UHGV virus genome: UHGV-0179428
Origin: a virus
Length of the DNA: 64,000 nt
Direction: 5' to 3' (one strand)
Within the stretch, counting starts at the first letter, position 1; every line of letters begins with the position of its first letter. The notes under the pieces were generated by a model. The model saw only the letters and a list, made by a program, of their open reading frames with translations, was not told the DNA's origin and made no database searches. Of this stretch, positions 2,762-46,269 are shown one piece after another. Position numbers and translations under genes: made by a program.

Positions 2762-4933
2762 GTGGACGCTAGAACAGCTAACGACTCAAGCTGGGTCAAA
2801 AGCCTCTTTAACGGCGTGTTGGATGGCCGAGATGAACGTTTCCTGGCCTTGCGACGCTACTCCAACGGTATGTTATCGTTCGAGGACACCACGTTAGGTG
2901 GCAGTAAAGCGATTAACACACCACCCCAATTTACATGGTTTGCAGATCCGCCATCGACTGGCGCATTTGCACAACCTGACAACCCGAGAGCCGAAACTAA
3001 AACATTCTCCAATAACCGAGAAACGGGTTCGTATAAACTCGGTACTTATTTCTACGAAAGTATTAATCAGAATTCGTTTTATGTTCACTGTCGGTTCGGT
3101 AAACCGAAATATCTGGGTATGGCCGCATTCTTTGCGAACATGTACGACTCCAACCTAGCGTACTTGGCTCGTACTGGTGACTATCCAGGTATGATGAGAA
3201 CGATGGTTTCGTATTTAGGTGCAGCAGCAATATGGGCCACTGTAGGTACCGTTGCCTTTGCGGTTATTCTTATTACACCACGAATTCTAAAAGCGGTGTT
3301 GAATAAACAAACTTCGCGTTACTATTACGTCAAACCAACGATGCATTTGTATTTGCGCGCCGTGCAAAACATTCTAAACACGCAACTCATTTATCGTCGT
3401 TTGGTTCCCACAGGCGTGCTCGGTAATTTCAAACTACAAGAAAATACCGATGATGGTACAAATTCATACAGCAATGATAAACAAGACTGGTATGCTTCGT
3501 TGCCTACTATCTGGAAAGATAACGGGGAGTTTGACGTTTATCGAATGATAAACCGCTATCAAACATTAGCGAATTATCAGACCAAAGCCATAGAGCAAAT
3601 GCGCATTGAAAGCGGTGGAGATGAAGAAGCATTTGCAAGAAAACTACGTGCGTTTTATAACGAAGGGATGTACTCCAAACGCGTTATTAATGATGCGGGT
3701 AGTTTCGAAGTTTCGTTGCATGACTTAGAAACGGTTGCTCAAAAAGACAACGCTTATAAAGCGCCTTTTGAAAATATTAACGATCAAGAGTCTAAGTTGG
3801 TTGAAGGGATCACTGGCACACTAACCGCTGGCGGTACCGCAGATGAAATTGATGCGAACACAAAGAAACTTCGAGAATCGATGGCAGCAAACATGGCTGC
3901 TGCGGAGAAGGCTGAAAACGAAATCGGTGGTGAGGATGTCCCCGATATAGCTAAGATACAAGAATGGGCAGATACGGGTTCTAAAGAAAATGTAGGGACC
4001 TTCTTTAAAGATTTCGTCGAAATGGGTAAAAACTATATCGACGGTATTAAGGAAAATGCGCTTTCTGAAATCCGTAATGGTTCGCAATGGGTGTCGTGGC
4101 GCATCGACGCTAAAGACACGGTTTCTCGTTCGTTCTCTAACTCTACTAAAGAGCCAGAGATTTCGGGTACCGTTAACTCGTTAACCGCGAAAGCACGTTC
4201 GTTAGAAGTCAACTTATCCGGCGGTCAAACGGGTTTCAGCGCTGTAGATGCTTTAGTTTCCGGGATTAAGTCCGCGATGCGTGGCGTTGCCGACACCTTA
4301 CATTTGACAGGGATCATGTCGCTGTACAACTCTTCGGTAATTGACTTTCCAGAAGTGTGGGACAGTTCGGATGCGTCGGGTGATGACATTACGTTAACGA
4401 TACCGTTACGCTGTTGGTCTGGCAACGATTTGGATATCTTCCAAGACTTGCTCGTTCCACTGTCATTCTGGATCGCTGCGGTTTGTCCGCTGGCTACAGG
4501 TAAACAATCTTTTACTCACCCGTTCTATTTAGAGTGTTACTCACAAGGACGCTTTTCTTTCCGTAATGCGATGGTGACGTCAATGTCATTGCAATTCGGT
4601 GTGGGTGGTTTAGGTTGGCGGCCAGGCGATTCCGTTCCACTGTCTTGCGATATCTCTGTTACTATTCGTGATTTGACTCGCGTTATGTACATGCCCATTG
4701 TTACCGACACAGGTGTGTGGGATGACGATAATAAATTTAGTGAATTTATGGCGTGTTTAGGTGGTGCTACGTTGTACGAGCGTACTAACGGTATTGCGCG
4801 TGCCAAGATTAATGCGAGCATCTGGGCACAAAACTGGGCATCCGCGTGGTCACAGGGTAGTTTTATTAACTCTGCACTGGATGTTATCCCAGCACGCCAG
4901 ATCGCGAACATCTTCTTGCCGCAAGCACGTTAA
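2762..4933 (+). CDS. Hypothetical protein (723 aa), possibly virion/ejection-associated
   Basis: Long ORF with GTG start 6 nt after AGAGG; internal hydrophobic segment (AAIWATVGTVAFAVILITP); co-oriented immediately downstream of the SLT-domain gene. Confidence 0.55.
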   Translation: MDARTANDSSWVKSLFNGVLDGRDERFLALRRYSNGMLSFEDTTLGGSKAINTPPQFTWFADPPSTGAFAQPDNPRAETKTFSNNRETGSYKLGTYFYESINQNSFYVHCRFGKPKYLGMAAFFANMYDSNLAYLARTGDYPGMMRTMVSYLGAAAIWATVGTVAFAVILITPRILKAVLNKQTSRYYYVKPTMHLYLRAVQNILNTQLIYRRLVPTGVLGNFKLQENTDDGTNSYSNDKQDWYASLPTIWKDNGEFDVYRMINRYQTLANYQTKAIEQMRIESGGDEEAFARKLRAFYNEGMYSKRVINDAGSFEVSLHDLETVAQKDNAYKAPFENINDQESKLVEGITGTLTAGGTADEIDANTKKLRESMAANMAAAEKAENEIGGEDVPDIAKIQEWADTGSKENVGTFFKDFVEMGKNYIDGIKENALSEIRNGSQWVSWRIDAKDTVSRSFSNSTKEPEISGTVNSLTAKARSLEVNLSGGQTGFSAVDALVSGIKSAMRGVADTLHLTGIMSLYNSSVIDFPEVWDSSDASGDDITLTIPLRCWSGNDLDIFQDLLVPLSFWIAAVCPLATGKQSFTHPFYLECYSQGRFSFRNAMVTSMSLQFGVGGLGWRPGDSVPLSCDISVTIRDLTRVMYMPIVTDTGVWDDDNKFSEFMACLGGATLYERTNGIARAKINASIWAQNWASAWSQGSFINSALDVIPARQIANIFLPQAR

Positions 4934-8422: not shown

Positions 8423-9457
8423 TTAGACAGCTATGGGAGCTTTAATTGTGTCGTGCGATTGATATCCAACCAATTCGAAGTCTTCGTATTTGTAATCGAA
8501 GATAGAATCAGGTTTACGTTTGATAACCAGCTTAGGTAGCGGGTAAGGTTCGCGTGTAAGTTGAAGTTTTGCCTGCTCCAGATGGTTAGAGTAAAGATGA
8601 ACATCTACGCCACTATAAACCAACTCGTCTGGAACCATATTGAGTTGTTGAGCAATCATGTGAGTTAACAACGCGTAAGAAGCGACGTTAAACGGTGCGC
8701 CAAGTAGGTAATCGTTGCTCCGCATCATGTAAAAACATGAAAGCTTACGGCGTGGAATGCCCTCACGATCTAAAGTTTCATGAAGTCGTTCTTCATCATC
8801 AATATCTTCGTGATTAATAAGTGGTGCGTTCGCAAATTTTTCCGGTTCGTTTACTTCGTACCAATCCAGTCGCTCAAGCAGTGACATTTCCGTTGTGTAG
8901 AATTGGAAATAGTTGTGGCATGGGTTAAGTGCCATATCGTCTAGGTCTGCTACATTCCAGGCACTAACGATAATACGGCGGGAGTCAGGGTCTTCACGAA
9001 GTTGCTGGATAACTTTACTGATCTGGTCATGTGCTTTTTCATAAACCAAATACGTCGTACCATCTTCCTTCATATTCCCAATATACTTGTAACCCCGCTG
9101 CATTAGTTGTTGTGTACGTCTTACGTCATGACACTCCACAACTTTACAGTCGCGCCATTCACGCCACTGGTGCCCGTAAACCGGACCTAAATCCCCTTCG
9201 TTGTTTGCCCATTCGTTCCAAATTTTTACCCCATTCTCTTGCAGGTACTTCACGTTAGTGTCACCGTTTAAGAACCACAGCAGTTCATGAATGATACTTT
9301 TCAGGTGAACCTTTTTCGTAGTAACTAATGGGAAACCTTCTTTCAGATCAAAACGTAGTTGACGGCCAAATACAGAAAGTGTCCCTACGCCTGTACGGTC
9401 TTTCTTGACAACACCGTTATCCAGAATGTCTTGCATTAACGCTAAATACTGTTTCAT
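8423..9457 (-). CDS. thyA: Thymidylate synthase (ThyA family) with two in-frame insertions
   Basis: N-terminus [15 protein letters not shown]...[12 protein letters not shown], catalytic-Cys motif [24 protein letters not shown] and C-terminus IKAPIAV are near-colinear with enterobacterial ThyA as I recall it. 344 aa versus ~264 aa because of two ~40-aa insertions (after WREW and after FQFYTTE). Confidence 0.85.
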
Positions 9458-33091: not shown

Positions 33092-33601
33092 TTAGAAGAA
33101 CGGCTGATTTGGAATGACAGCGTACTCTAAAATGAACATGTGCTCTGGGGCGTCTTCTTTACGCCAGACTTTGTGTGTTATCACAAGTTTTTCCAGAATC
33201 GTTAGAAAACTACGCTGGCAGTATGTGTTTTCGCCAAGTAGCAGTTTCTGAAGTTCTACAGTAGCGTCCATATACGCCTGTTTAAAGACTAAGCTACGGT
33301 TATACTGTCCAGTAAAATTCCAAAGCAAGACTTTCCCTTCTTCGGTTTCTTTTACCGTTGGTCGTAAACCACAAATCCACAGCAAGGCAAGGTTGACGTT
33401 CCAGTCAAACTCTAAACCTTCTTCTTCGTCATCACCGAATGCTGTAGGTAAAGCATCGTAAAATTCGTGCTTCTCTGCGAACTCTTCATCCGATTTAATC
33501 TCGTCTTCGATGCTGCTTCGGACGATACCGTAAATGTCTTTCGCGGTTAGCTGTGCGGCCTTTGTAATGCCTTTATACCAATCGGTTACAACGATGCTCA
33601 A
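33092..33601 (-). CDS. Hypothetical protein (169 aa)
   Basis: ORF. Confidence 0.5.
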   Translation of the reverse strand: MSIVVTDWYKGITKAAQLTAKDIYGIVRSSIEDEIKSDEEFAEKHEFYDALPTAFGDDEEEGLEFDWNVNLALLWICGLRPTVKETEEGKVLLWNFTGQYNRSLVFKQAYMDATVELQKLLLGENTYCQRSFLTILEKLVITHKVWRKEDAPEHMFILEYAVIPNQPFF

Positions 33602-34323
33602 AGGGTAACTCCTCTATCGGTTGGAAAACTCATGTTTATTGTATCCCAAATTTTACTAACTTCCGCCAATTGAATCTGACGTGATGTTTTCTTCGCAAAC
33701 GCAAGCTGACGTGGGGCCGAGCCCACAACAACAGGCACATCGATTTTCGCGCTATAGAACGCGGCATCTTTCATAAAGCCTGCCATTTCTCGTTGTGCTG
33801 CTCGAGATTTGCTTTTGATTCGCGTGTGAGCGCCACTTTCACCCCAGTGGTAAGCTAACGCAACTTCAGCCATGGTGGGCTTGCGTTTGAGTCGTTTGGT
33901 TAACCCCTTCTCAAGATGTTTAACATACGCGGTAGCCAGCAAAACAGCGTTACGCGGATTATACAAATCGGTGTTCTGACTAAGACCTAATTCTTTTCCA
34001 TAAAGCTTTAGCAGATTGCGCTTGGTACTTGGAAGCATCTGTACCAGGCTGTGCGCTCGTGTGCTTTTGTTGTAAGCCTTGGGATCAAAACGTGATTCGC
34101 GATAAATCAGCGTAATCATCAGTTTAGGATCAACGCCTTGTTTTCGTGAGATTTCCACAATTAACGGACTGACTTTTTCGAACCGATGTTGGATTTGTGT
34201 AAACTCACGCTGATGCTTAGAATGTGGCGTTGACGTTGACGCCTGTGCGTTAAACGCGAAAAGTGTTACCAGTAAAAGAAAGAAGATACGAAACATTTTG
34301 TTTCTCCAGTTGGATTTATACAT
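33598..34323 (-). CDS. Secreted lytic transglycosylase (SLT domain) with signal peptide; candidate endolysin
   Basis: Signal-like MFRIFFLLLVTLFAFNAQA; SLT motifs YRESRFDPKAY...AHSLVQMLPST and YNPRNAVLLATAYVKHL. Confidence 0.6.
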   Translation of the reverse strand: MYKSNWRNKMFRIFFLLLVTLFAFNAQASTSTPHSKHQREFTQIQHRFEKVSPLIVEISRKQGVDPKLMITLIYRESRFDPKAYNKSTRAHSLVQMLPSTKRNLLKLYGKELGLSQNTDLYNPRNAVLLATAYVKHLEKGLTKRLKRKPTMAEVALAYHWGESGAHTRIKSKSRAAQREMAGFMKDAAFYSAKIDVPVVVGSAPRQLAFAKKTSRQIQLAEVSKIWDTINMSFPTDRGVTL

Positions 34324-34396: not shown

Positions 34397-34957
34397 CTAT
34401 TTAAAAGAGTTTGGAATTAATGACTCTGCTTCTCGATACAACCTATCGGGTAAGTATAACGTGTAGTGTTGCCTCCTCGGTTCAAGTTTTTTGTAAAGCC
34501 ACAAGAAGATTTCTTGTCTTTCCCAGGAATCTAACCACCCATTTGCCATTCCCAGTGGAGGGATAGCAACGCTGGTATCCAGCTCCTCAACACAATCTGC
34601 TAATGCGGTAATGCCCGCAGTAACATAAGAAACCTGGGACTTTAAACGCCAATGTGTTTTCGTTGGGAGCAAGATGCACTTTTCATCAGGGTAAACGTAA
34701 ACGCTTCCAATCTTAATTTCGTCTTCACGACACCGCTTACGGTAATCTTGATATAGGTTGGGGTAGCGTTCACGGCACGCCAGCGCAATACCGCGGCCCA
34801 TTGCTCCTACACAGTTAATGGTAACGACTTTATAGTCTTCGGGCGCATTAAAAAGATCGCTACCAATTTCAGATTCTTTACGTACCGTTAACATAACGAA
34901 TCGGCCGCAGTTGATGTGTAGTATTAAAACGTGTACCGCCGATTGATAACTCGACAA
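34397..34957 (-). CDS. Macrodomain protein of the TARG1/DarG-like type (ADP-ribose glycohydrolase candidate)
   Basis: Motif GSDLFNAPEDYKVVTINCVGAMGRGIALACRERYP resembles the DLF...MG-x-GIA core of TARG1/DarG macrodomains. Real start probably the internal MLTVRKE. Confidence 0.45.
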   Translation of the reverse strand: MSSYQSAVHVLILHINCGRFVMLTVRKESEIGSDLFNAPEDYKVVTINCVGAMGRGIALACRERYPNLYQDYRKRCREDEIKIGSVYVYPDEKCILLPTKTHWRLKSQVSYVTAGITALADCVEELDTSVAIPPLGMANGWLDSWERQEIFLWLYKKLEPRRQHYTLYLPDRLYREAESLIPNSFK

Positions 34958-35618: not shown

Positions 35619-36068
35619 TTAGAATGTTTTGCTAAAATCGACCCACTCACGATCGTGTGAGTAAACCGCCTGATAGCCGCGTCGGATGAAATACTCTTTT
35701 GCTTCTTTACATTTCGCATACATGCCAGTAACAATCTCGCCGAAAACTTCATCAGCTGCAATTGCTTTGAAAATCTCTTTCATTACACCCCGTTGACGAT
35801 AGTCTGGGAGCACGTATACCGAACGTATCTTAAGTGAACCGTTACGATTCCGATAACTACAGTATCCTACCGCGACATCATCCTGATACACCAGAACTAT
35901 GCAGTTACCTTCGATCAGCTGTCGCGCATTTAACTTCGGCACCGACGTTTTGATTTTCAGTAACGTGGCCTGGTGGTCTAAGTAACGGTAGTGTAGTTTG
36001 AGTAAATCGGCAGCTTGTCGCTCACCGACTTTAGAAGATGCGTTCAACAAATAAATTTCCATTTGCAA
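35619..36068 (-). CDS. GNAT-family N-acetyltransferase
   Basis: Motif A-like SVYVLPDYRQRGVMKEIFKAI (R/Q-x-x-G-x-G/A acetyl-CoA binding loop); 149 aa, typical GNAT size. Confidence 0.55.
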   Translation of the reverse strand: MQMEIYLLNASSKVGERQAADLLKLHYRYLDHQATLLKIKTSVPKLNARQLIEGNCIVLVYQDDVAVGYCSYRNRNGSLKIRSVYVLPDYRQRGVMKEIFKAIAADEVFGEIVTGMYAKCKEAKEYFIRRGYQAVYSHDREWVDFSKTF

Positions 36069-36093: not shown

Positions 36094-36222
36094 TTAAAAC
36101 CAACGCGCGATGACGAAAGCCGCAGCGGCTAATATGGCTGTGGTGATTATCAATCCACCCCATGAAAGTTCCGCGTCGTATAGTGCGGATATCGCTACAT
36201 TCGTAGCGTTTATCGTGGTCAT
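36094..36222 (-). CDS. Small hydrophobic peptide (42 aa), not in ORF track
   Basis: ATG ORF with AGGAG 5 nt upstream: MTTINATNVAISALYDAELSWGGLIITTAILAAAAFVIARWF. Confidence 0.35.
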   Translation of the reverse strand: MTTINATNVAISALYDAELSWGGLIITTAILAAAAFVIARWF

Positions 36223-36388
36223 TTTCTGCTCCTGTCAATACCCTCACACCGGAGGGTATCTTCTGGACTATTTGGGTGGTTAATCTTCGAATGCCCAACG
36301 GTGACGTTTAATCAGCCAGTTTAAACCTTTACCAATTAACCACAACGAGCCAAGTGTTAACAGAACCCCTACAACCATATCCCCTCTC

Positions 36389-36574
36389 CTAATTCCGCCA
36401 TTCGCATTCGCGTTGACGCCAAATTGAACCCCACGATAGTTTAATCAGATAAGATGAAACTACCCATAAAATCATCACCACACAAAACATGACATAAAGA
36501 ACCGCTAGAATGGACATGAAGCCAAACCCTGCCGCATCCACAATACGACGGAACCAATCAGTTTGCATAAACAA
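36389..36574 (-). CDS. Small membrane protein (61 aa)
   Basis: Hydrophobic FGFMSILAVLYVMFCVVMILWVV; start overlaps the stop of the upstream ATPase gene. Confidence 0.4.
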   Translation of the reverse strand: MFMQTDWFRRIVDAAGFGFMSILAVLYVMFCVVMILWVVSSYLIKLSWGSIWRQRECEWRN

Positions 36575-39062
36575 TTTTTACTCCTTCGTTATACACCGCA
36601 GGCAATGTCACCCCTTCCGGTTCGATGACACAGTACGATGCTTCATTAAGTTTAGAATGAACCTCGGCTTCGTGGGAGACTACCAACAGTTGAGAAAATT
36701 CTCCCGAGTTTGCTAACGTTTTAATAAAGCCGACCAGGTTGTTACGGTGCTCCTCATCCATACCTTCCGAAGGCTCATCCAAAAGCAATGGAAACTGATG
36801 CAACTTCAGCGCTTTGTACGCGGTCAGCCTGAACATCAGATTAAATATCGCACGCTGCGCCTTAGACCCTTTACGCACGTCAGGAACAGGCTCAGGATGC
36901 GTTTTTAGCTGGACAGGAAAAGTATAATCCAAATCACCGTCAGTGAGATCGCAAGGCATGACGCGCATGGGGTACGTCCAGACCTGTTCGATATAACGCG
37001 TCATTAACTCTGTGATTCTAACGATAGCGTTGTAAAAATACTTTCTAAGCACACCCTTTTCTGGCGAGAAGGCTTGAATCATCAGTTTGTTATTGAACTG
37101 CTGGGCTTGCAAGTCAGCAAGTTCGCGTTCCAAACTGTTGAGCTGATTCAATTCATTTTCCATCTGACGATAACGTTCGCGTGCGGTTGTAAAAGCATCC
37201 AGCTTCCCTTCTCGTGCACGTAAGAGTTCCTCGACGACTGTATTTGTCAACGTAACCTTAACATCACTCTCTAACCGTTCGAATAACGCACTGAAATCAT
37301 CTACAGCACGTTTAACATTCACCAGATAGGTAAGTGTCGTGTTAGCCAGTTCGTGCTCTCTACGACGCATTGAGAGCATCTCTGTGGCTTTACCTAATCG
37401 CGACTGTTGGAAAGCGATTTTCTGTTGTAAAGCACCATCGACGTTACCAACGGCCGCTACGGCATCCTGCCATTCTTTTTCCGCTTTCACTAACCGTTGT
37501 CGGGTTTCATGGTACTCAATAGCAGAGTACAACTCACTGTCAAACGCTGCGCATAGGCTCCCGAACTGCTCGCGTGATTCTGTGAAAACGTTACGTTCTT
37601 GCAAACGCTTAAAGAACATGCTCAATACCGGGTCCTTTGAATACGTCAGTACAATCTCACGAACCTGTCGCATATAAGTTACATCGGATTCTAACTCAAC
37701 ACGATCGCGTAATAGGGCCTCTAACTGCGTTTGTAGTTCCGTGCGCTGCTGTTGTTGTCCGCGAATCGAAGACTCAAGTTCAGGTAAAGAACGTGTAACA
37801 CCAGGCCGAAACTTAAACCGACACTGCGGACAATCCACTTCTGCTGTTTCTAAGTAGTGATTACGCTCATGATTTAAATTCTGTAAAACGTTCTCCACTC
37901 GCTGGAGTCTATCCCGCAACCCTGCGGTTTTTTGATCCATCACCAGAAGCCGTTCTTCCAAAACATTGAGTTTTTCGGTTGAATGAATTGCGTCCAGTGT
38001 TGTTCCTAACCGTTGCCCCCAGACACGCGCATCGGTAGCCGCACGAAGTTGGTCTAAATTGACGTTGTCGTTAAATAGACCCGGAAAGAGATGCTCGGTG
38101 TCCCATTTGGTAAGTAACTCACGTAAACGTGCCAGCGTATTCTTGAGACCTTCGTGATTCCGCATCAGGTAGTCTTGTCGTGTCGACTCATCCATTAATA
38201 ACGACAAGTCTTTATTCAACATCGATACCTCTGTTTCAGTAGAAACAACAGCTTCGCGGGCGGTCGCTTCGTTTTGTCGCGCGACCAGTATCTGTTCATC
38301 AGTAGGCAATCCACCACGATGTTGTAATATTGCGTCGATGGTTGGACCCAAGCTGTTTAATAACGCTTGGATTGTTTCGATGGTGACGGCACGATTTAAT
38401 CCTGGCAACTGTTCGATTTCTCGGTTCAGTTCACGTAAATCCGATTCCAAACCTTTTAATCTCGTCGCTAACTGCTGCCGTTCTTCCTCGTTCTCAATAA
38501 CGCGCGTCCGTAATTCGGCGATCTTACGGCTGGTGATTTCAATACCCCCATTTAAAGCAGTAAGGTTTTTACGCAAACGTTGATAAAACCCTAACGCGTA
38601 AGTGAGGTCAGAGGTACTTAAACGGTAAAACCACTTGCGGCGTAGTTCGGTTCCCGCGTCAGTTAACAACACCTCACCATTTAATAGTTCTTTAATCTCT
38701 TTCGTAATACCCGTGATTTCTTCAACACGGGAGTTGTAGACTTTCGCATTACCTTGCTCGACGATCTTTGTCCCCGTGGTCAAGTTCTCAATATCACAAA
38801 CCAGTGAGTTGCCTTTACGGGCAACTTTGAATCGATAGCGTTGATCGCCAACTAAACAGTAGTTTGTGTAAGAACCTCCGTCCCTGAATTCGGTTTTAGC
38901 CGGTGCTAAGGGTAAGAACACAGACAGTAGACTGGTTTTCCCGCAGCCGTTCCCACCCAGGATAATTGTTGTCGGTGACTGGATAGTGAAATCGAAGGTT
39001 TCAATTTCATGTAACCCCATCCCCGTAAAACCTTTGAGTATAATGCGTTCAACTTTTAGCAT
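36558..39062 (-). CDS. Rad50/SbcC-like coiled-coil ABC ATPase with zinc-hook CxxC
   Basis: Start moved to the ATG at 39062 (GGAGGTGGGT upstream). Walker A GGNGCGKTSLL, long helical middle with CPQC, Walker B/D-loop LLLDEPSEGMDEE, H-loop VVSHE. Confidence 0.65.
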   Translation of the reverse strand: MLKVERIILKGFTGMGLHEIETFDFTIQSPTTIILGGNGCGKTSLLSVFLPLAPAKTEFRDGGSYTNYCLVGDQRYRFKVARKGNSLVCDIENLTTGTKIVEQGNAKVYNSRVEEITGITKEIKELLNGEVLLTDAGTELRRKWFYRLSTSDLTYALGFYQRLRKNLTALNGGIEITSRKIAELRTRVIENEEERQQLATRLKGLESDLRELNREIEQLPGLNRAVTIETIQALLNSLGPTIDAILQHRGGLPTDEQILVARQNEATAREAVVSTETEVSMLNKDLSLLMDESTRQDYLMRNHEGLKNTLARLRELLTKWDTEHLFPGLFNDNVNLDQLRAATDARVWGQRLGTTLDAIHSTEKLNVLEERLLVMDQKTAGLRDRLQRVENVLQNLNHERNHYLETAEVDCPQCRFKFRPGVTRSLPELESSIRGQQQQRTELQTQLEALLRDRVELESDVTYMRQVREIVLTYSKDPVLSMFFKRLQERNVFTESREQFGSLCAAFDSELYSAIEYHETRQRLVKAEKEWQDAVAAVGNVDGALQQKIAFQQSRLGKATEMLSMRRREHELANTTLTYLVNVKRAVDDFSALFERLESDVKVTLTNTVVEELLRAREGKLDAFTTARERYRQMENELNQLNSLERELADLQAQQFNNKLMIQAFSPEKGVLRKYFYNAIVRITELMTRYIEQVWTYPMRVMPCDLTDGDLDYTFPVQLKTHPEPVPDVRKGSKAQRAIFNLMFRLTAYKALKLHQFPLLLDEPSEGMDEEHRNNLVGFIKTLANSGEFSQLLVVSHEAEVHSKLNEASYCVIEPEGVTLPAVYNEGVKIVYAN

Positions 39063-39091
39063 ACCCACCTCCATAAAGACGGAGTGTGGTG

Positions 39092-39137
39092 TAAAAAGAA
39101 AAAAAAATAAAGAAAGGGAGAACCCGAAGGTTCTCCC
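39092..39137 (-). terminator. Rho-independent terminator (GGGAGAACC / GGTTCTCCC stem)
   Basis: 9-bp stem with CGAA loop and long T-run on the minus strand after 39143..39751. Confidence 0.6.
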
Positions 39138-39142
39138 AAACG

Positions 39143-39751
39143 TTATTTGGTGTAGAGGTGATAACCCATTGAAGTCCAATAATCGACGTTCTTCGTGTTT
39201 TCTACCCAAACCTGTCCCGCCTTTGTGGCTAAGACTTCCATTGTCAATGTACAGATCAGATTTGTTACCGGGATACAATTTCCAGGTGTAACATCATCCA
39301 GATAAACCGGGTATAAAAACGGCGATTTAATGGATTGGTACGGGTAAGAATAGTGGCTACCGACCTTCCACCCTTCTTCTACAGGACAGAGATTAAAAGT
39401 GCGTGTTTCAGGAACTGCGTTTTCAGAGATCCAGTTAACAACATCGGCTTTAATTCGATCGTGGTCGATATAGTAGAACACAACACGTTGTGGGATACTT
39501 GTGGTACCAGCCGGGTCTAAAGCCTCCAACGCCTTAAAAGGCGACGTTAACAATGTTGTACTGTTCTCAAGCGCGTAAACCAACTTTTCGTAAGCAGTCG
39601 GTGTTTTACGTTTAAAATATTCCCGTAAGCGAGGGTATGCCAGGAATCCCTCTACTTCTTCTTCCATTAAGTCAATGAATAAAGGCGTATGCGAAAAACG
39701 CTCTGCATTTTGCATCGCTTCAAGAAAACGAACTAATGTAATTTCGTTCAT
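39143..39751 (-). CDS. Hypothetical protein (202 aa)
   Basis: ORF. Confidence 0.5.
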   Translation of the reverse strand: MNEITLVRFLEAMQNAERFSHTPLFIDLMEEEVEGFLAYPRLREYFKRKTPTAYEKLVYALENSTTLLTSPFKALEALDPAGTTSIPQRVVFYYIDHDRIKADVVNWISENAVPETRTFNLCPVEEGWKVGSHYSYPYQSIKSPFLYPVYLDDVTPGNCIPVTNLICTLTMEVLATKAGQVWVENTKNVDYWTSMGYHLYTK

Positions 39752-39807
39752 CTGGTCTTTCCTTTTAGATCAAAAAAAGAAGCCCCGAGTAAACGGGGCC
39801 GGGCTAA

Positions 39808-40284
39808 TTACAGCCCTAAGTGCGTGAGTGATAAAATAGGTTGTGTTTCACCTTTAATCGTCGCGAAGGAACGATACATTTCTGCGTTACTTGAAAAAAC
39901 TTCGTTAGCAACGATACATTCACCCGTCTCTAAAGAAAGGAGATAAATGTAGTCGCTCCATACGCTTTGTACCAACACCCACTCAAGTGCGGTATCATTT
40001 TCGCGTGTTGTTCGCAGGTGGTGAAAGTAAGGACGGATTGCATCAACTGCCGCATTAAAACGACGGTGATAAATTCGGGTTAAATCAAAGGTCCAGATTG
40101 TTTCCAGGTCGACTGGATGTAGTGTGCGCACCGTTTCGATAATCGTCGACTGATCGTTAAGGCGCGAGGCTTCGGCGATACGTAGCAGTTTCCAGGCCAC
40201 CGTTAAGTTGTGGCGAATTTGTTCAGGTTTAGCCGACAGGTCATGATGAAATTGCGCAGCTTGGTAAACGTTAGATAATTGCAT
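39808..40284 (-). CDS. Hypothetical protein (158 aa)
   Basis: ORF. Confidence 0.5.
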   Translation of the reverse strand: MQLSNVYQAAQFHHDLSAKPEQIRHNLTVAWKLLRIAEASRLNDQSTIIETVRTLHPVDLETIWTFDLTRIYHRRFNAAVDAIRPYFHHLRTTRENDTALEWVLVQSVWSDYIYLLSLETGECIVANEVFSSNAEMYRSFATIKGETQPILSLTHLGL

Positions 40285-40310: not shown

Positions 40311-40340
40311 CGTAAAAAGGACCCCGGACGTACCGGGGTC
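40311..40340 (-). terminator. Candidate terminator hairpin (GACCCCGG / CCGGGGTC)
   Basis: 8-bp GC stem with short T-run on the minus strand after 40351..40740. Confidence 0.4.
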
Positions 40341-40350
40341 AAGACTACAC

Positions 40351-40740
40351 TCAATGATCTAATTCAATAGCACCAGCCATCTTGCCCCGTTCTTCGATAA
40401 CGATCAGATAACGGTCGCGAGATTTGCTTTTAGCGAGAGTTAAGACAACGGTAGGGTCGCACGTTTTCGTGGTGATAGGAAGAACCTCTCTTGCGACGGA
40501 ATCGAGCAGAAAGTAATAACCTGCGGGACACATTGTGCCACCGTCAGCTTTTACCAGAATATAGCGCCCGTCTGCGCCGACTTCTTGGCAGATTGTTTCA
40601 CCGACTTCGCAAACTTCAAACCCCGGAGGATTGTACTGATAATCGGTATTGTTGTTTGGGGTTAGCAGTAAATCGTTAACTTGGGTAGATGCTGCTACAC
40701 TCAGGGAGAAGAAGAATGCTAAAACGCAGACGAGACGCAT
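40351..40740 (-). CDS. Secreted small protein with signal peptide, Cys-containing (129 aa)
   Basis: MRLVCVLAFFFSLSVAAST signal-like N-terminus; four Cys in the mature part. Confidence 0.5.
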   Translation of the reverse strand: MRLVCVLAFFFSLSVAASTQVNDLLLTPNNNTDYQYNPPGFEVCEVGETICQEVGADGRYILVKADGGTMCPAGYYFLLDSVAREVLPITTKTCDPTVVLTLAKSKSRDRYLIVIEERGKMAGAIELDH

Positions 40741-40750
40741 GAGTTACTCC

Positions 40751-41161
40751 TTAAATTTTAAGTTTATCCATAGCTACAACGATAGGTTTTTCCGAAGTGT
40801 CTAATATCCCTACCATTGGCACACCATCTACGACTTCGAAGAATGGTTTGTTATTACCAGAGCACAGACGTTTGTCGTTGTATTCGAGACGCTGGGCCTT
40901 CCACGTTTCGAGGTTGAGTACGGACATTGGGCTGTCGTAGCACCAGGCACCACCCTGCTCAACGATGAATACGTATCTGCTACCTTTGTATTTAAACAGA
41001 CTCTTTGCCTGACAGTACAAGCCGTCGATTTCCGTACAATAGAAATCATCGGTGCTATTGACGTACTTAATATTGTCTGGCAACTGTATTGTTTTTGCTG
41101 TAGTGTTGACAGAGAATAGAACAGCCATTGCAATGAGGAGAGTATTAATGATAGTTTTCAT
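40751..41161 (-). CDS. Secreted small protein with signal peptide, Cys-containing (136 aa)
   Basis: MKTIINTLLIAMAVLFSVNTTA signal-like N-terminus; several Cys. Confidence 0.5.
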   Translation of the reverse strand: MKTIINTLLIAMAVLFSVNTTAKTIQLPDNIKYVNSTDDFYCTEIDGLYCQAKSLFKYKGSRYVFIVEQGGAWCYDSPMSVLNLETWKAQRLEYNDKRLCSGNNKPFFEVVDGVPMVGILDTSEKPIVVAMDKLKI

Positions 41162-41172
41162 GATAAAAGTCC

Positions 41173-41658
41173 TTAGTATTTAGATTGTTCTACGTACTTC
41201 TTAACCAGGTAAGCGAATTCGGCAACACCGATATCACCGAACCAAATCAGATAACCGGGGTCGATGTTGTAGTAATAGCCGACGAGTTTCTTGGTGTGTG
41301 GGTTGTATAGCGTTACGATGTATTCCCAACCACAAGCGTTAGCTTTACAACCGCCACTTTCAATCCAGATTTTGTTGTTGATGTTTACCGGATACATGTT
41401 ACCGCCAGGGCCATCCATGTAACCTTTAGAGCCGAACATACCATCCAGCCCCACAGGGTCTAATGTTTTATCAACAACGGCTTTAAACGACTTATCGGTA
41501 TCGTACAAGTCGTTGATGTTTGGGCACGCATTTGGCTGACCTTCCCAAGCGTTTCCATCACAGGTAAGCAGTTCGTCTACGGAGGCCGCATCTACACTTG
41601 GTGTGGCACCGATAAACAAGAAAACCAGAAAGAACATCAGTGTGTGTAAACGTTTCAT
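41173..41658 (-). CDS. Secreted small protein with signal peptide (161 aa)
   Basis: MKRLHTLMFFLVFLFIGATPSVDAA signal-like N-terminus; Cys pairs. Confidence 0.5.
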   Translation of the reverse strand: MKRLHTLMFFLVFLFIGATPSVDAASVDELLTCDGNAWEGQPNACPNINDLYDTDKSFKAVVDKTLDPVGLDGMFGSKGYMDGPGGNMYPVNINNKIWIESGGCKANACGWEYIVTLYNPHTKKLVGYYYNIDPGYLIWFGDIGVAEFAYLVKKYVEQSKY

Positions 41659-41676
41659 TGTAACTACTCCTTTAGA

Positions 41677-42069
41677 TTATTCGGCAGGACGATTTAAGGT
41701 AACGCGTCCGATTAATTCGGCGTTGTGAAAGAAGTCCACAGCGGTATAGTTACCAACTGATAGCGGATGGATACTAACTGACATTACCTTTGGTTGTTCG
41801 CAAGCGATATCCGTCAGACGTTGGTAGACTTGTGCACGGGTGTCAGCAATGAGTAATCCCGTACACGTTTCACCACGCACTAAACGATAAACTTGCAGTT
41901 TACCGAAACTGCGCATTAACGTAGGCGTCTCGTCCGGGTTGATAATCGGTGAGTCAGGAGCCGGTTCGTAATAGCGGACATCCGAATCACCGAAAGCATA
42001 AGTGCCAGTAATTCCGACTGCACAGAAAATAATGATAGTATAAAGTATAGTTCTGATATTCATTTTCAC
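41677..42069 (-). CDS. Secreted small protein with signal peptide (130 aa)
   Basis: MKMNIRTILYTIIIFCAVGITGTYAFG signal-like N-terminus. Confidence 0.5.
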   Translation of the reverse strand: MKMNIRTILYTIIIFCAVGITGTYAFGDSDVRYYEPAPDSPIINPDETPTLMRSFGKLQVYRLVRGETCTGLLIADTRAQVYQRLTDIACEQPKVMSVSIHPLSVGNYTAVDFFHNAELIGRVTLNRPAE

Positions 42070-42091
42070 GCACTCTAAAAAAGATTAATAG

Positions 42092-42553
42092 TTATTTGTT
42101 AGGACGGGTGTGTCCACAGTTCTGGAAGAAAGTTTCAGACAGACGTTCGCCTTCTACGGTAAAGTTAGCGGCATCGTTACCATTGATACTCACACTGAAA
42201 GTTTTGGCATTACCGATAGCATTAACGAAAGCAACCCAAGCGTGTTCTGCTTTGTCACTACCGTCCACGGTAGGGATGTTATAGGTTTTGCCGTTTACGA
42301 CAATATCCATCGTGTTATCTTCAGCGTTAGTTGCACCTACGGGTTCACCGTAATACCAGACCATGCGACCGTAAAATTTGCGATTCGCAGTTTCAGTGTC
42401 ACAGTTGATAGACAGTCCGTTTCCGGCGGTGTCTTCAATTTCGTAAACTGCCTGGCCAGGGTTTTGTATTTGTTCCCAGCTGTTGATAGCGGCGTGTGCA
42501 GTATTGAGGCCGAAAGTTAAAATGGTTATTAAGAAAGTGATAAAGGTTTTCAT
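42092..42553 (-). CDS. Secreted small protein with signal peptide (153 aa)
   Basis: MKTFITFLITILTFGLNTAHAA signal-like N-terminus. Confidence 0.5.
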   Translation of the reverse strand: MKTFITFLITILTFGLNTAHAAINSWEQIQNPGQAVYEIEDTAGNGLSINCDTETANRKFYGRMVWYYGEPVGATNAEDNTMDIVVNGKTYNIPTVDGSDKAEHAWVAFVNAIGNAKTFSVSINGNDAANFTVEGERLSETFFQNCGHTRPNK

Positions 42554-43692: not shown

Positions 43693-44466
43693 CTAATAAT
43701 TAAGTTTTACATCGGCAATAAACAGCAACTGTTTACCGTGTTGCTGCACTTCTTTCCAACCTAGCTTCATAGCAGCGTCAACAACATCTATCATGCTGTA
43801 ACGAGACATCAACGCGGTTGATTTTGTTCCTGACATTAAGTAAAGCGGCTCGTTGGGGCAACGGTCGCGTGCATCAGGAAGTTCCCGAGAGACTGCTGAG
43901 CCTTCGGGTACGGTAACAACATGAATCACGGTAAATGGTCTTTTGTGGGTTAAATAAATACGAAACCCAACGTGTTCAGACTCATGAAAGACTTTTTTCA
44001 CAACCACATCTTTTAGTGTCGTCTGAACATCAATCCCAGGTAATATCATGGATTCGCGAGAAACAAAACAACGACTATTTTCAACCGTGGAGAAATAATT
44101 ACGTATCGGCAAACTGGCGTTATGATCGTGCAGTTTTTTGCTCAGTAGATCGAAGTTCAGTTCTTTAACTTTCTCTAGCCATTCTTTGGCTTGTTGTATG
44201 TAATAACTACCAACGGTGCGATAAGTCAATACCTTACCTGTGCTTACTTTCCAAAGTTTAACGCTTAGTGAATTCGGCTTATAGCGACGATACTCACCCC
44301 GCGTATAGTTGATGCGCTCGTAACGCTCTACATCGTCAACGGGCGCAGATTCGATCGATTGTAATTGCAACGTACGATCTAATCTATCGGCGAATAGTAG
44401 TGATGTTAGCGGACCTTCGATCAAATACGGTTCGGTTTTAAAGATATCATCTAGATGGATTTTCAT
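43693..44466 (-). CDS. Member 4 of a tandem paralog family with conserved C-terminal G-W...G-x-Q-L-L-F-x-A module
   Basis: C-terminus ALMSRYSMIDVVDAAMKLGWKEVQQHGKQLLFIADVKLNY. Confidence 0.55.
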   Translation of the reverse strand: MKIHLDDIFKTEPYLIEGPLTSLLFADRLDRTLQLQSIESAPVDDVERYERINYTRGEYRRYKPNSLSVKLWKVSTGKVLTYRTVGSYYIQQAKEWLEKVKELNFDLLSKKLHDHNASLPIRNYFSTVENSRCFVSRESMILPGIDVQTTLKDVVVKKVFHESEHVGFRIYLTHKRPFTVIHVVTVPEGSAVSRELPDARDRCPNEPLYLMSGTKSTALMSRYSMIDVVDAAMKLGWKEVQQHGKQLLFIADVKLNY

Positions 44467-44533
44467 TTCTATTTCCTTCTTAACAAAAGCCGCGACTAAA
44501 GCGCGGCAGTTAGAGAAAGTGTATTTTCACTTA

Positions 44534-45685
44534 TTAGAGGTCAGCAACAAACAACAGCTGACTGCCGTATTTTTGCACGTCAGCCCAACCGTAGTCTTTC
44601 CCGATTATAGGTAGATGTAAAGCATCCAGCTTCTCGTCTTTCGCCTTCAGTTTCGCCATTAACGCATTGGACTCCTCAGCACTGAGCAGTAATGCGGGTT
44701 CTTTTTCAGTACGTCCTTCTGCGGTCGGGAAGAAATCGTAATAGCTGCGAGTAGGTAAATCGACAGAAAAACTACGATTGCCTATTGTGATGAAGAACGC
44801 AACTCCTTCACAGTTAGCGTCTACACTACACGACCACCCCGCCTCTGTTAAAAGGTCTTTTAACAGACACCACACTTTAAGTTGGTTCTTAGAAAGTGTA
44901 CGGTAAATAGCAAGATGGTCAGGAAGTAAATGCACACCCATAACCACGTTTTCAGATTTCTCGTCAAGCAACTCTGGATGTTGAATCGGGAATAATAATT
45001 CACTGATACCCACGCTATCAATTTTGTTAACAAAATCAGTTAATTCATCTTTTAAGGTACGCACGGATTTTTCTCCTTCGACTTCAATAATCTGGTGGGG
45101 TTCGCCGCTAATTAAAATGTGGTAAACGATATCGTCGGTAGAACGGTAAGTGAGTTTGATAGCTTTATCACTTAACATTTCGTAGCGGAAGAAACTTTCG
45201 TACCAAGTTGACCCGAAATCGTTTCGTGTAAGTTCCTGCTCAACTTTGATGGTTTTTGCTTCAAAGCCGATTAACCCGCTTAATAACGCGAGTTCTGGTT
45301 TAGTTAAAATGTCCGCGCCGTGAAAGGGCACTTTCTCAAGCTGAAGACATAAATTACTGACTTTACCACTTGGGAAGACCTTAAACATAATCTTCCGGCT
45401 GCTACTCTTTTCCCTAACAACGAGTTTACGGTAATTTAGTCCACAATTTGTGTAAACCGCGAACTTGTAACCTTCAATTTCTTCATCGTAAGTACAGACA
45501 TCGACAGGCGCGATAATCTCATTGTATTCAGTAAGTACACAGCAGCCCAAGTTATAACCAAACAACTCACGTTGTAATGAAGACTCGATGGTTAAGCTTG
45601 GTAGCGACCAAGTCCGATTATAGCATCTGTCCATCAGTTCTTTTAGGATTTTGACATGTCCCGGTTTAGAAATAATATTTCGCAT
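44534..45685 (-). CDS. Member 3 of the tandem paralog family (383 aa)
   Basis: C-terminus ALMAKLKAKDEKLDALHLPIIGKDYGWADVQKYGSQLLFVADL. Confidence 0.55.
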   Translation of the reverse strand: MRNIISKPGHVKILKELMDRCYNRTWSLPSLTIESSLQRELFGYNLGCCVLTEYNEIIAPVDVCTYDEEIEGYKFAVYTNCGLNYRKLVVREKSSSRKIMFKVFPSGKVSNLCLQLEKVPFHGADILTKPELALLSGLIGFEAKTIKVEQELTRNDFGSTWYESFFRYEMLSDKAIKLTYRSTDDIVYHILISGEPHQIIEVEGEKSVRTLKDELTDFVNKIDSVGISELLFPIQHPELLDEKSENVVMGVHLLPDHLAIYRTLSKNQLKVWCLLKDLLTEAGWSCSVDANCEGVAFFITIGNRSFSVDLPTRSYYDFFPTAEGRTEKEPALLLSAEESNALMAKLKAKDEKLDALHLPIIGKDYGWADVQKYGSQLLFVADL

Positions 45686-45714
45686 TTTTACTCTCCTTTA
45701 GGTTTTTTCGTTAC

Positions 45715-46269
45715 TTAAGCAGGGTAAGCTAAGAACAACAGCTGCTGGCCGATTTTACGTACGGTATACCAACCGTGGGCTTTAGCGACCGCGATCAACG
45801 TTTCCCAGTCGTCAACATCGCACTGTTCATTCCGAAGTCTCGTAAAGAGTGCTTCGGCTTCGCTTTGGTTTAATAACTTACCTGGGTTGTCTGGGGTACA
45901 GTCAGTAGGGGTTGGAAAGAAAGCATACTGACGCGCTAAGAGAAAATCGACCAGATACTTGGTGTTCTCTTTATAAACCAGCGTGGAAGTCTTCCCTTCG
46001 TGGAAGAAGCTGCCTGTTTTCCAAACGCTATCTTTCAGTAGGCTTTGAAAGTAATCTGTAAAACCCGTTCTAAACGGGATATGGGCTTTACGTGTGATGT
46101 TGCGACGCAGTGGGGTTTCCTCCACAGCTTGTACACTTACCCCTACTATCATCGCACCTGGCTGAATAATGGTATTGGTCAGTACGGTATAAGGACGGAC
46201 AAAGAAATGTTCGCCTACGCCCTTTTCAAGGGTTTGGATAATTTCATTTTTCAGTTCAGTTTGAAACAT
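45715..46269 (-). CDS. Member 2 of the tandem paralog family (184 aa)
   Basis: C-terminus EALFTRLRNEQCDVDDWETLIAVAKAHGWYTVRKIGQQLLFLAYPA. Confidence 0.55.
   Translation of the reverse strand: MFQTELKNEIIQTLEKGVGEHFFVRPYTVLTNTIIQPGAMIVGVSVQAVEETPLRRNITRKAHIPFRTGFTDYFQSLLKDSVWKTGSFFHEGKTSTLVYKENTKYLVDFLLARQYAFFPTPTDCTPDNPGKLLNQSEAEALFTRLRNEQCDVDDWETLIAVAKAHGWYTVRKIGQQLLFLAYPA

Follow-up and report, generated by a model that had tools for sequence, protein, structure and literature searches.

A probable SbcC subunit encoded far from its putative SbcD partner, and the small membrane proteins following it, in a phiKZ-like jumbo phage

Almost all jumbo phages are considered to have both SbcC and SbcD (Iyer et al. 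2021, PMC7824862). In Salmonella phage SPN3US the SbcC subunit is gp186, a homolog of phiKZ ORF165, and the analysis of an amber mutant showed that it is essential (Thomas et al. 2016, PMC5105663). In the same study SbcD was identified as SPN3US gp27, the SbcC and SbcD genes of SPN3US, phiKZ and their relatives were called 'drastically separated', and a transmembrane protein of 63 amino acids (aa), gp187, encoded immediately downstream of gp186, was likened to T4 gp47.1. In case of phiKZ, gp165 is listed in the core genome as an 'SbcC-like nuclease', the knock-down of which is deleterious (PMC12571901), and no transposon insertion was obtained in orf165 (PMC12676376). Here we analyse the corresponding locus of the virus genome UHGV-0179428, contained in a stretch of 64,000 nucleotides (hereafter the window, to which the coordinates refer unless stated otherwise). 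The locus consists of the gene of an 834-aa ATPase, located at 36558..39062, and of three small open reading frames (ORFs) downstream of it; these and all other window features given below with coordinates are on the minus strand. A preliminary description had presented the protein as an orphan zinc-hook ATPase of Rad50/SbcC type, and had left two explanations, either that the nuclease partner is found elsewhere in the genome or that the protein belongs to a non-canonical SMC-like system.

In our judgement it is highly probable that the 834-aa protein represents SbcC, the Rad50-type subunit of an SbcCD/Mre11-Rad50 nuclease which processes DNA ends and the SbcD of which is encoded about 87-95 kb away. 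The protein is orthologous to both SPN3US gp186 and phiKZ gp165 (58% and 22% identity, respectively). The three proteins are of similar length (approx. 830-836 aa), all the ATPase motifs and the CPxC hook can be aligned, and the gene is essential in both described phages. The locus also resembles that of SPN3US in its local synteny, in the distant SbcD and in the small transmembrane ORF lying over the stop codon (gp187). Unlike SPN3US, the phage of the window represents a different, recently recognised lineage, known from contigs of about 220-228 kb in Salmonella, E. coli and Shigella assemblies, and its cassette comprises three small ORFs vs. five or six in SPN3US.

The bipartite ABC head, the antiparallel coiled coil, the CxxC hook and an Mre11-type partner with motifs I-V are common to this system, E. 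coli SbcCD and T4 gp46/gp47. It differs from the latter two in gene arrangement, as the SbcC and SbcD genes of the phage clade are not in one operon, while in the canonical sbcDC and T4 46-47 operons the genes are adjacent and co-transcribed. Further differences are the strong divergence of the window ATPase, which falls below the curated Pfam and NCBIfam cut-offs and has GSKAQ at the signature position, and motif III of the clade SbcD, which reads G-T-P-S-H-D instead of GNHD/E. As to size, the 834 aa of the window ATPase can be compared with the 1048 aa of E. coli SbcC, and the 63.6 kDa of the T4 protein with the 95.7 kDa of SPN3US gp186 (PMC5105663).

For SPN3US, the gene and the fact that it is essential, its distance from SbcD and the transmembrane ORF following it were all described in 2016, and the gene belongs to the described core genome of the Chimalliviridae. 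The present results are of little significance for discovery and their main lesson is one of method. Since phiKZ-like genomes scatter functionally linked genes, a partner missing within 64 kb does not mean that a gene is an orphan. Minor additions are a conserved 32-aa ORF which is missing from the annotations of SPN3US and Asesino, and a map of the membrane-protein cassette following SbcC across genera.

The SbcC-type ATPase

The ATPase gene starts with an ATG at 39062, preceded by the Shine-Dalgarno (SD) sequence GGAGGTG at 39066-39072, and is terminated by a TGA at 36558-36560. Use of an alternative in-frame ATG 12 nt upstream, at 39074, would result in a protein of 838 aa, but the homologs all begin with MLKVERI. 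The motifs named in the preliminary description could all be located. The Walker A motif (P-loop) GGNGCGKT is at 38934..38957 and corresponds to residues 36-43, of which G36, N38, G39, G41 and K42 are invariant as far as phiKZ gp165. The zinc-hook apex VDCPQCRFKFRPG was found at 37800..37838 (residues 409-421), its CPQC (37821..37832, residues 411-414) being situated almost exactly at the midpoint of the protein. C411, P412, C414, F418, P420 and G421 of the hook are invariant in seven sequences, down to the 22% identity of phiKZ gp165, and among 33 homologs the same residues are invariant with the exception of P412, which is conserved in at least 90% of them. In the C-terminal part, the Walker B motif and the D-loop, PLLLDEPSEGMD, occupy 36756..36791 (residues 758-769), and the H-loop VVSHE is at 36669..36683 (residues 794-798). 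In the 33 homologs and in phiKZ gp165, residues P758, L759, D762, E763 and D769 of the Walker B/D-loop region as well as S796 and H797 of the H-loop are invariant.

The position of the ABC signature is taken by GSKAQ (36855..36869, residues 732-736), a signature-like variant of LSGGQ/E. Both S733 and Q736 of this motif are invariant, while the phiKZ protein reads GSDSQ here; the resulting pattern is GS[KD][AS]Q, from which the Gly-Gly pair of LSGGQ/E is absent.

A structural model of the ATPase was built by AlphaFold2 (AF2) from the 33 homologs, with a mean predicted local distance difference test (pLDDT) score of 83. According to the model, a beta-rich head lobe I (residues 1-135) is followed by a helical arm (138-405), the hook (406-425), a return arm (426-664) and head lobe II (672-834), in agreement with the long coiled coil anticipated earlier from the sequence. 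CPQC is placed on a short beta-hairpin joining the two long helical arms, and the apex of about 20 residues does not contain a globular domain. The protein thus displays features of Rad50/SbcC, namely a bipartite ABC head, an antiparallel coiled coil between its halves and a CxxC apex, the predicted zinc hook.

The comparisons with databases pointed in the same direction. PHROG_77 ('SbcC-like subunit of palindrome specific endonuclease') was matched with an E value of 5e-91. With a profile made from seven homologs, the best match in the PDB was P. furiosus Rad50 (E 2e-7), covering both the N- and the C-terminal halves of the head, and the best NCBIfam model was also Rad50, though far under its cut-off. 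When the AF2 model was compared with solved structures by Foldseek, the top match was Chaetomium Rad50 in the MRN complex (7zr1, E 8e-19). The archaeal and eukaryotic Rad50 proteins (P. furiosus 3qkt, Chaetomium 7zr1) are therefore the best matches of known structure and have the same overall architecture, while the window protein differs from them in its low identity (approx. 12%), in having no Nbs1-type third subunit and in its phage context.

Smc5/6, condensin, MukB, Lamassu and JetC were also listed by Foldseek, with E values of 1e-16 to 1e-9. These lower matches, together with the lack of an adjacent nuclease gene, would be in line with a stand-alone SMC-like protein working without a nuclease, either as a chromosome organiser of the phage nucleus or as a conflict system of the Lamassu, Wadjet or RloC kind. 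Against this, Rad50 is the top match in both sequence and fold, and neither the AF2 model nor the alignment has an SMC-type globular hinge at the apex, where a CPxC hairpin is found instead. Since the apex is a predicted zinc hook and not a hinge, the ATPase is set apart from the SMC proteins proper. In addition, an accessory defence gene would hardly be part of the core genome and indispensable for lytic growth, as this gene is.

The distant SbcD homologs

SbcD could not be detected in the window. The best E value was 0.79 when five SbcD proteins of the clade were used as tblastn queries, and a hidden Markov model (HMM) of the clade SbcD family gave no match at E<=10 in the six-frame translation of the window, while the positive controls scored approx. 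1e-147. The absence of an adjacent Mre11/SbcD, noted earlier for the immediate neighbourhood, therefore holds for the entire 64 kb.

Homologs of the ATPase occur in 290 phage records, all of them phiKZ-type jumbo phages infecting Pseudomonas, Erwinia, Salmonella, Vibrio and other hosts, and the source phage is a phiKZ-like (Chimalliviridae), nucleus-forming jumbo phage. The closest relatives of the ATPase are found in the Erwinia phages Asesino (gp207), Stratton and phiEaH2 (approx. 71% aa identity), followed by SPN3US. When the locus was compared by megablast with 50,697 phage records, no match was obtained, the kinship being visible at the protein level only. The local synteny is retained with Asesino gp205-218 and with the corresponding region of SPN3US, the order being two genes of unknown function, the ATPase, the small ORFs, a GNAT acetyltransferase, a macro-domain protein and an SLT transglycosylase with a signal peptide. 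Other genes of the window encode a UvsX-like recombinase, an RNase H-like ribonuclease, a tail-associated transglycosylase and three giant virion proteins, which are paralogous to one another and typical of the family; tRNA genes were not found in the window.

The window is approx. 95% identical at the DNA level to two IMG/VR contigs of 220.8 kb and 225 kb, and 100% identical over 22.5 kb to the ENA metagenome contig ERZ1034818 NODE_4 (144,860 bp), of which it makes up, by arithmetic, positions 32001-96000. The protein clusters of SbcC and SbcD (285 and 248 members, respectively) derive largely from contigs of about 220-228 kb in isolate assemblies of Salmonella, E. coli and Shigella. The look-up by 90% protein clusters yielded further samples of this phage group, but not ERZ1034818. 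'Bapsvirus' is a recently proposed genus of the Chimalliviridae, the members of which are lytic jumbo phages encountered in assemblies of bacteria (PMC12768965). The phage of the window fits this genus, an assignment which we infer from the above properties.

A dedicated SbcD/Mre11 homolog, distant from SbcC, is present in all the relatives examined. In Asesino the two genes are situated at 21.8 kb (SbcD) and 170.9 kb (SbcC), and the corresponding positions in SPN3US are 21.0 kb and 168.9 kb. Both genes are present in each of the two contigs which are approx. 95% identical to the window, with a gap of 86.9 kb in the 225-kb contig and of 130.6 kb in the 220.8-kb contig, or 86.5 kb when the latter is measured the other way round the circular map. 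Across the relatives the separation is 87-148 kb, and in the close relatives about 87-95 kb on the circular map. Since SbcD is normally encoded about 90 kb from SbcC, it falls outside a 64-kb window. The term orphan is consequently not justified, the separation being a published trait of the phiKZ-like phages (PMC5105663), and of the two explanations offered in the preliminary description the one placing the nuclease partner elsewhere in the genome is supported by the SbcD found approx. 87 kb away in both of the closely related genomes.

The distant gene has the properties expected of an Mre11-type nuclease. SPN3US gp27, annotated as 'nuclease SbcCD D subunit', has homologs in 290 phage records, which equals the number obtained for the ATPase, from essentially the same hosts. 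The clade SbcD family (36 sequences) retains the metal-ligand motifs of Mre11, DxH, GDxxD, G-T-P-S-H-D, H and GHxH; the invariant positions are D22/H24, G57 (with D58 in at least 90%), G97-T-(P)-S-H-D102, H180 and H212/H214. Single-sequence matches of the clade SbcD to Pfam and NCBIfam are weak, and the family profile matched T. maritima Mre11/SbcD over approx. 300 residues (10-305) with an E value of 7e-12, P. furiosus Mre11 and E. coli SbcD also being matched. The co-occurrence of the ATPase with a dedicated Mre11-type protein, 290 vs. 290 records, is a further argument against the SMC-like protein acting without a nuclease, and with the zinc hook and the Rad50 matches taken into account we regard that explanation as very improbable.

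Some points weigh against the identification of the ATPase as an SbcC subunit. The protein is below the curated cut-offs, reaching 34.6 bits vs. 40 in case of Pfam SMC_N and 40 bits vs. 847 in case of NCBIfam Rad50. GSKAQ appears to be its sole departure from the textbook ABC pattern. Neither a physical SbcC-SbcD interaction nor nuclease activity is reported for this phage clade in the literature found. Finally, the SbcD partner was seen in the approx. 95% identical genomes and not on the 144.9-kb contig of the window itself; if synteny holds, this contig is too short to contain SbcD, which is expected about 18 kb past its end.

If the ATPase is an SbcC subunit as proposed, its action may be outlined from what is known about E. 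coli SbcCD, archaeal and eukaryotic Mre11-Rad50 and T4 gp46/gp47. Two ATPase chains would dimerise via the Cys-Pro-x-Cys zinc hook at the tips of the coiled coils, and ATP would bring both head domains together on the DNA. DNA ends and hairpins would then be cut by the SbcD/Mre11 phosphoesterase, which is encoded separately and would be attached as a dimer to the base of the coiled coils, and this would feed into genome repair and recombination-dependent replication of the phage.

It was also observed that SbcD (3001-4149 in the SbcD loci of the relatives) overlaps the 222-aa gene upstream by 17 nt and the 278-aa gene downstream by 4 nt. SbcD and its two flanking genes form a tight three-gene block, which is equivalent to SPN3US gp26-gp28.

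The small ORFs downstream of the ATPase gene

The first of the small ORFs, ORF-a, encodes a protein with one transmembrane helix and extends over 36389..36568 when started at an ATG (59 aa) or to 36574 when started at a TTG (61 aa). It overlaps the stop of the ATPase gene by 11 nt or 17 nt, respectively, matches PHROG_16515 (E 9e-5) and corresponds to SPN3US gp187. ORF-b (36280..36378, 32 aa) has an N-terminal hydrophobic helix and matches PHROG_13448 (E 7e-14). The third ORF (36094..36222, 42 aa) has a C-terminal transmembrane helix and no PHROG match, and is the ortholog of SPN3US gp189 (43 aa). A single strongly hydrophobic stretch (Kyte-Doolittle maxima of 1.8-2.95 over 17-19 residues) and an AGGAG-type SD sequence at 6-7 nt are found in each of them. 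The preliminary description had listed hydrophobic ORFs of 61, 42 and possibly 31 aa, the first overlapping the ATPase stop; the three ORFs, their hydrophobic character and the overlap stand, while the possible 31-aa ORF is one of 32 aa and the first is of 59 aa if the ATG is used.

The sequence of the window contains 125 ORFs of at least 30 aa in 15 kb. Since ORFs of 32-61 aa are frequent by chance, the reality of the small ORFs rests on their conservation and not on their existence. All 10 genomes examined from the SPN3US/Erwinia clade have a single-pass transmembrane ORF of the ORF-a type (49-66 aa) that either overlaps the SbcC stop or directly adjoins it. The CEWR-like motif at its C-terminus is common to the lineages from that of the window through SPN3US, while the protein as a whole evolves fast, with 27-34% identity where SbcC retains 58-71%. 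ORF-b (32-46 aa) has the same position in all the clade genomes examined, with 39-100% identity. It is absent from the GenBank/RefSeq annotations of SPN3US and Asesino, where it lies among the annotated small genes after SbcC; the unannotated counterparts (32-36 aa; 34 aa in SPN3US) are at 8689-8793 of the locus extract of SPN3US (NC_027402.1) and at 8695-8805 of that of Asesino (KX397364.2). The 42-aa ORF is 64% identical in a lineage in which the ATPase is 87% identical, and 42% identical in SPN3US. The pairwise ratios of nonsynonymous to synonymous substitution rates (dN/dS) were 0.10-0.45 for ORF-a, 0.10-0.16 for the 42-aa ORF and 0.014 for the ATPase, which points to a coding constraint on the small ORFs, but a weaker one than on the ATPase. 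The preliminary description had made its proposal depend on the conservation of the small peptides in related phages, and they are indeed conserved across the SPN3US/Erwinia clade. As judged from these comparisons, the three small ORFs are genuine, co-oriented genes.

The ATPase gene is separated from the 202-aa gene upstream by a terminator-like hairpin, GGGAGAACC-TTCG-GGTTCTCCC, at 39116..39137, which is followed by a long T-run. Because of this hairpin, the ATPase and the small ORFs are suggested to form a transcription unit separate from the 202-aa gene. The small ORFs are probably co-transcribed with SbcC, and ORF-a may be translationally coupled to it. A second hairpin, ATACCCTC-CGGTGT-GAGGGTAT (36238..36259), with a perfect 8-bp stem and no T-tail, was observed in the 57 nt that separate the 32-aa ORF from the 42-aa ORF.

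The composition of the cassette varies. Three ORFs which are found in SPN3US, Asesino, Huxley, ChrisDB and Caitlin are missing from the lineage of the window: an ORF of 65-75 aa, another of 34-35 aa with the C-terminus '...TQGWF' or a close variant, and a third of approx. 58-83 aa with a GEDWRG motif. In the Cronobacter phage CR5, the place after SbcC is occupied by a different transmembrane protein of 113 aa. No such small membrane ORF follows SbcC in phiKZ, Eowyn, RP31, the Mortimer/RAY-type phages and pAEv1810, and thus the association is clade-specific, although SbcC itself is core. The small ORFs belong to a cassette of tiny membrane proteins which varies in composition and is specific to the clade of SPN3US and the Erwinia phages. 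Since SbcC is core to the whole family while the small ORFs are clade-specific and variable, we judge that the latter are dispensable for the SbcCD chemistry itself and are accessory membrane proteins, not subunits required for it.

The explanation we lean towards is that the small ORFs are accessory membrane proteins unrelated to SbcCD, taking part for example in lysis timing, envelope modification or superinfection exclusion. In this case the small ORFs would simply be occupants of a variable gap between SbcC and the genes of the GNAT acetyltransferase (35619..36068), the macro-domain protein (34397..34957) and the secreted transglycosylase, the content of which differs from genus to genus, as is also illustrated by the protein of CR5. 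The transglycosylase (33598..34323), an SLT enzyme with an N-terminal signal peptide and a 'putative endolysin' in Asesino, is encoded about 2 kb downstream; it is not adjacent to the small ORFs, four genes being in between. In the Aeromonas phage pAEv1810 the transglycosylase gene is directly 3' of SbcC. On the other hand, the small ORFs gave no Pfam match to holin, antiholin, spanin or other functional families and matched PHROGs of unknown function only, no holin or other role of theirs, experimentally supported or otherwise, was found in the literature search, and conservation extends to the tight overlap with the SbcC stop.

This conserved overlap or abutment would rather suit small transmembrane proteins, especially ORF-a, which are partners of SbcC and tether or regulate SbcCD at the membrane, as suggested for T4 gp47.1; the idea was raised for SPN3US gp187 (PMC5105663). 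The transmembrane helix and the CEWR-like C-terminal motif kept from the window lineage to SPN3US, as well as the terminator-like hairpin that sets the ATPase and its small ORFs apart from the 202-aa gene, can be counted in its favour. The lack of such an ORF in phiKZ and the other phages named above, the gain and loss of cassette members and the fast evolution of ORF-a relative to SbcC speak against it. So does the biology of the nucleus-forming phages, in which DNA metabolism takes place inside a protein-shelled nucleus and not at the cell membrane. Such a tethering or regulating role is in our opinion improbable. Slightly less probable still is the stricter form of the idea, that in the SPN3US/Erwinia/'Bapsvirus' clade ORF-a is a true accessory subunit linking SbcCD to a lipid membrane, which could be that of the cell or that of the early lipid vesicle around the injected genome. 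If this were the case, ORF-a would provide the clade with a membrane-linked step of DNA processing that phiKZ lacks.

Upstream genes and other observations

The two genes upstream of the ATPase gene encode proteins of 202 aa (39143..39751) and 158 aa (39808..40284). Their only matches are PHROG_9964 and PHROG_8115, respectively, both of unknown function, and neither has a Pfam or NCBIfam match. Across the clade only F36, P51, L151 and P156 of the 202-aa protein and F12, I143 and P149 of the 158-aa protein are invariant, and no candidate catalytic residue (acidic or histidine) is conserved in either of them. The profiles of the two proteins did not match any entry of the PDB. The preliminary description had proposed the products of these genes for a remote-homology comparison, which revealed no nuclease signature. 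Both were rejected as the hidden nuclease partner, the hhalign probability against the SbcD family being 0.1% for the 202-aa and 0.2% for the 158-aa protein. According to the profile comparison, two tblastn matches of SbcD onto the 202-aa gene (E approx. 0.8) are due to chance.

GC-rich hairpins with T-runs are present in three consecutive intergenic gaps of this region, at 40320..40340 upstream of the 158-aa gene, at 39781..39800 after the 158-aa gene and at 39116..39137 after the 202-aa gene. Over the whole region the number of terminator-like structures is no higher than the shuffled expectation (5 found vs. 5.4 expected).

Five tandem ORFs of 129-161 aa are located further upstream, in 40351..42553 (40351..40740, 40751..41161, 41173..41658, 41677..42069 and 42092..42553), and each has a signal-peptide-like hydrophobic N-terminus. 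The last of them has a precomputed match to Pfam YfjT. One would not expect such a series of small, apparently secreted proteins in a nucleus-forming lytic phage. Three consecutive ORFs of 257, 383 and 184 aa (43693..46269) share a similar C-terminal ending, ...GW..V...G.QLLF.A.., which suggests that they may belong to a local paralog family of unknown function.

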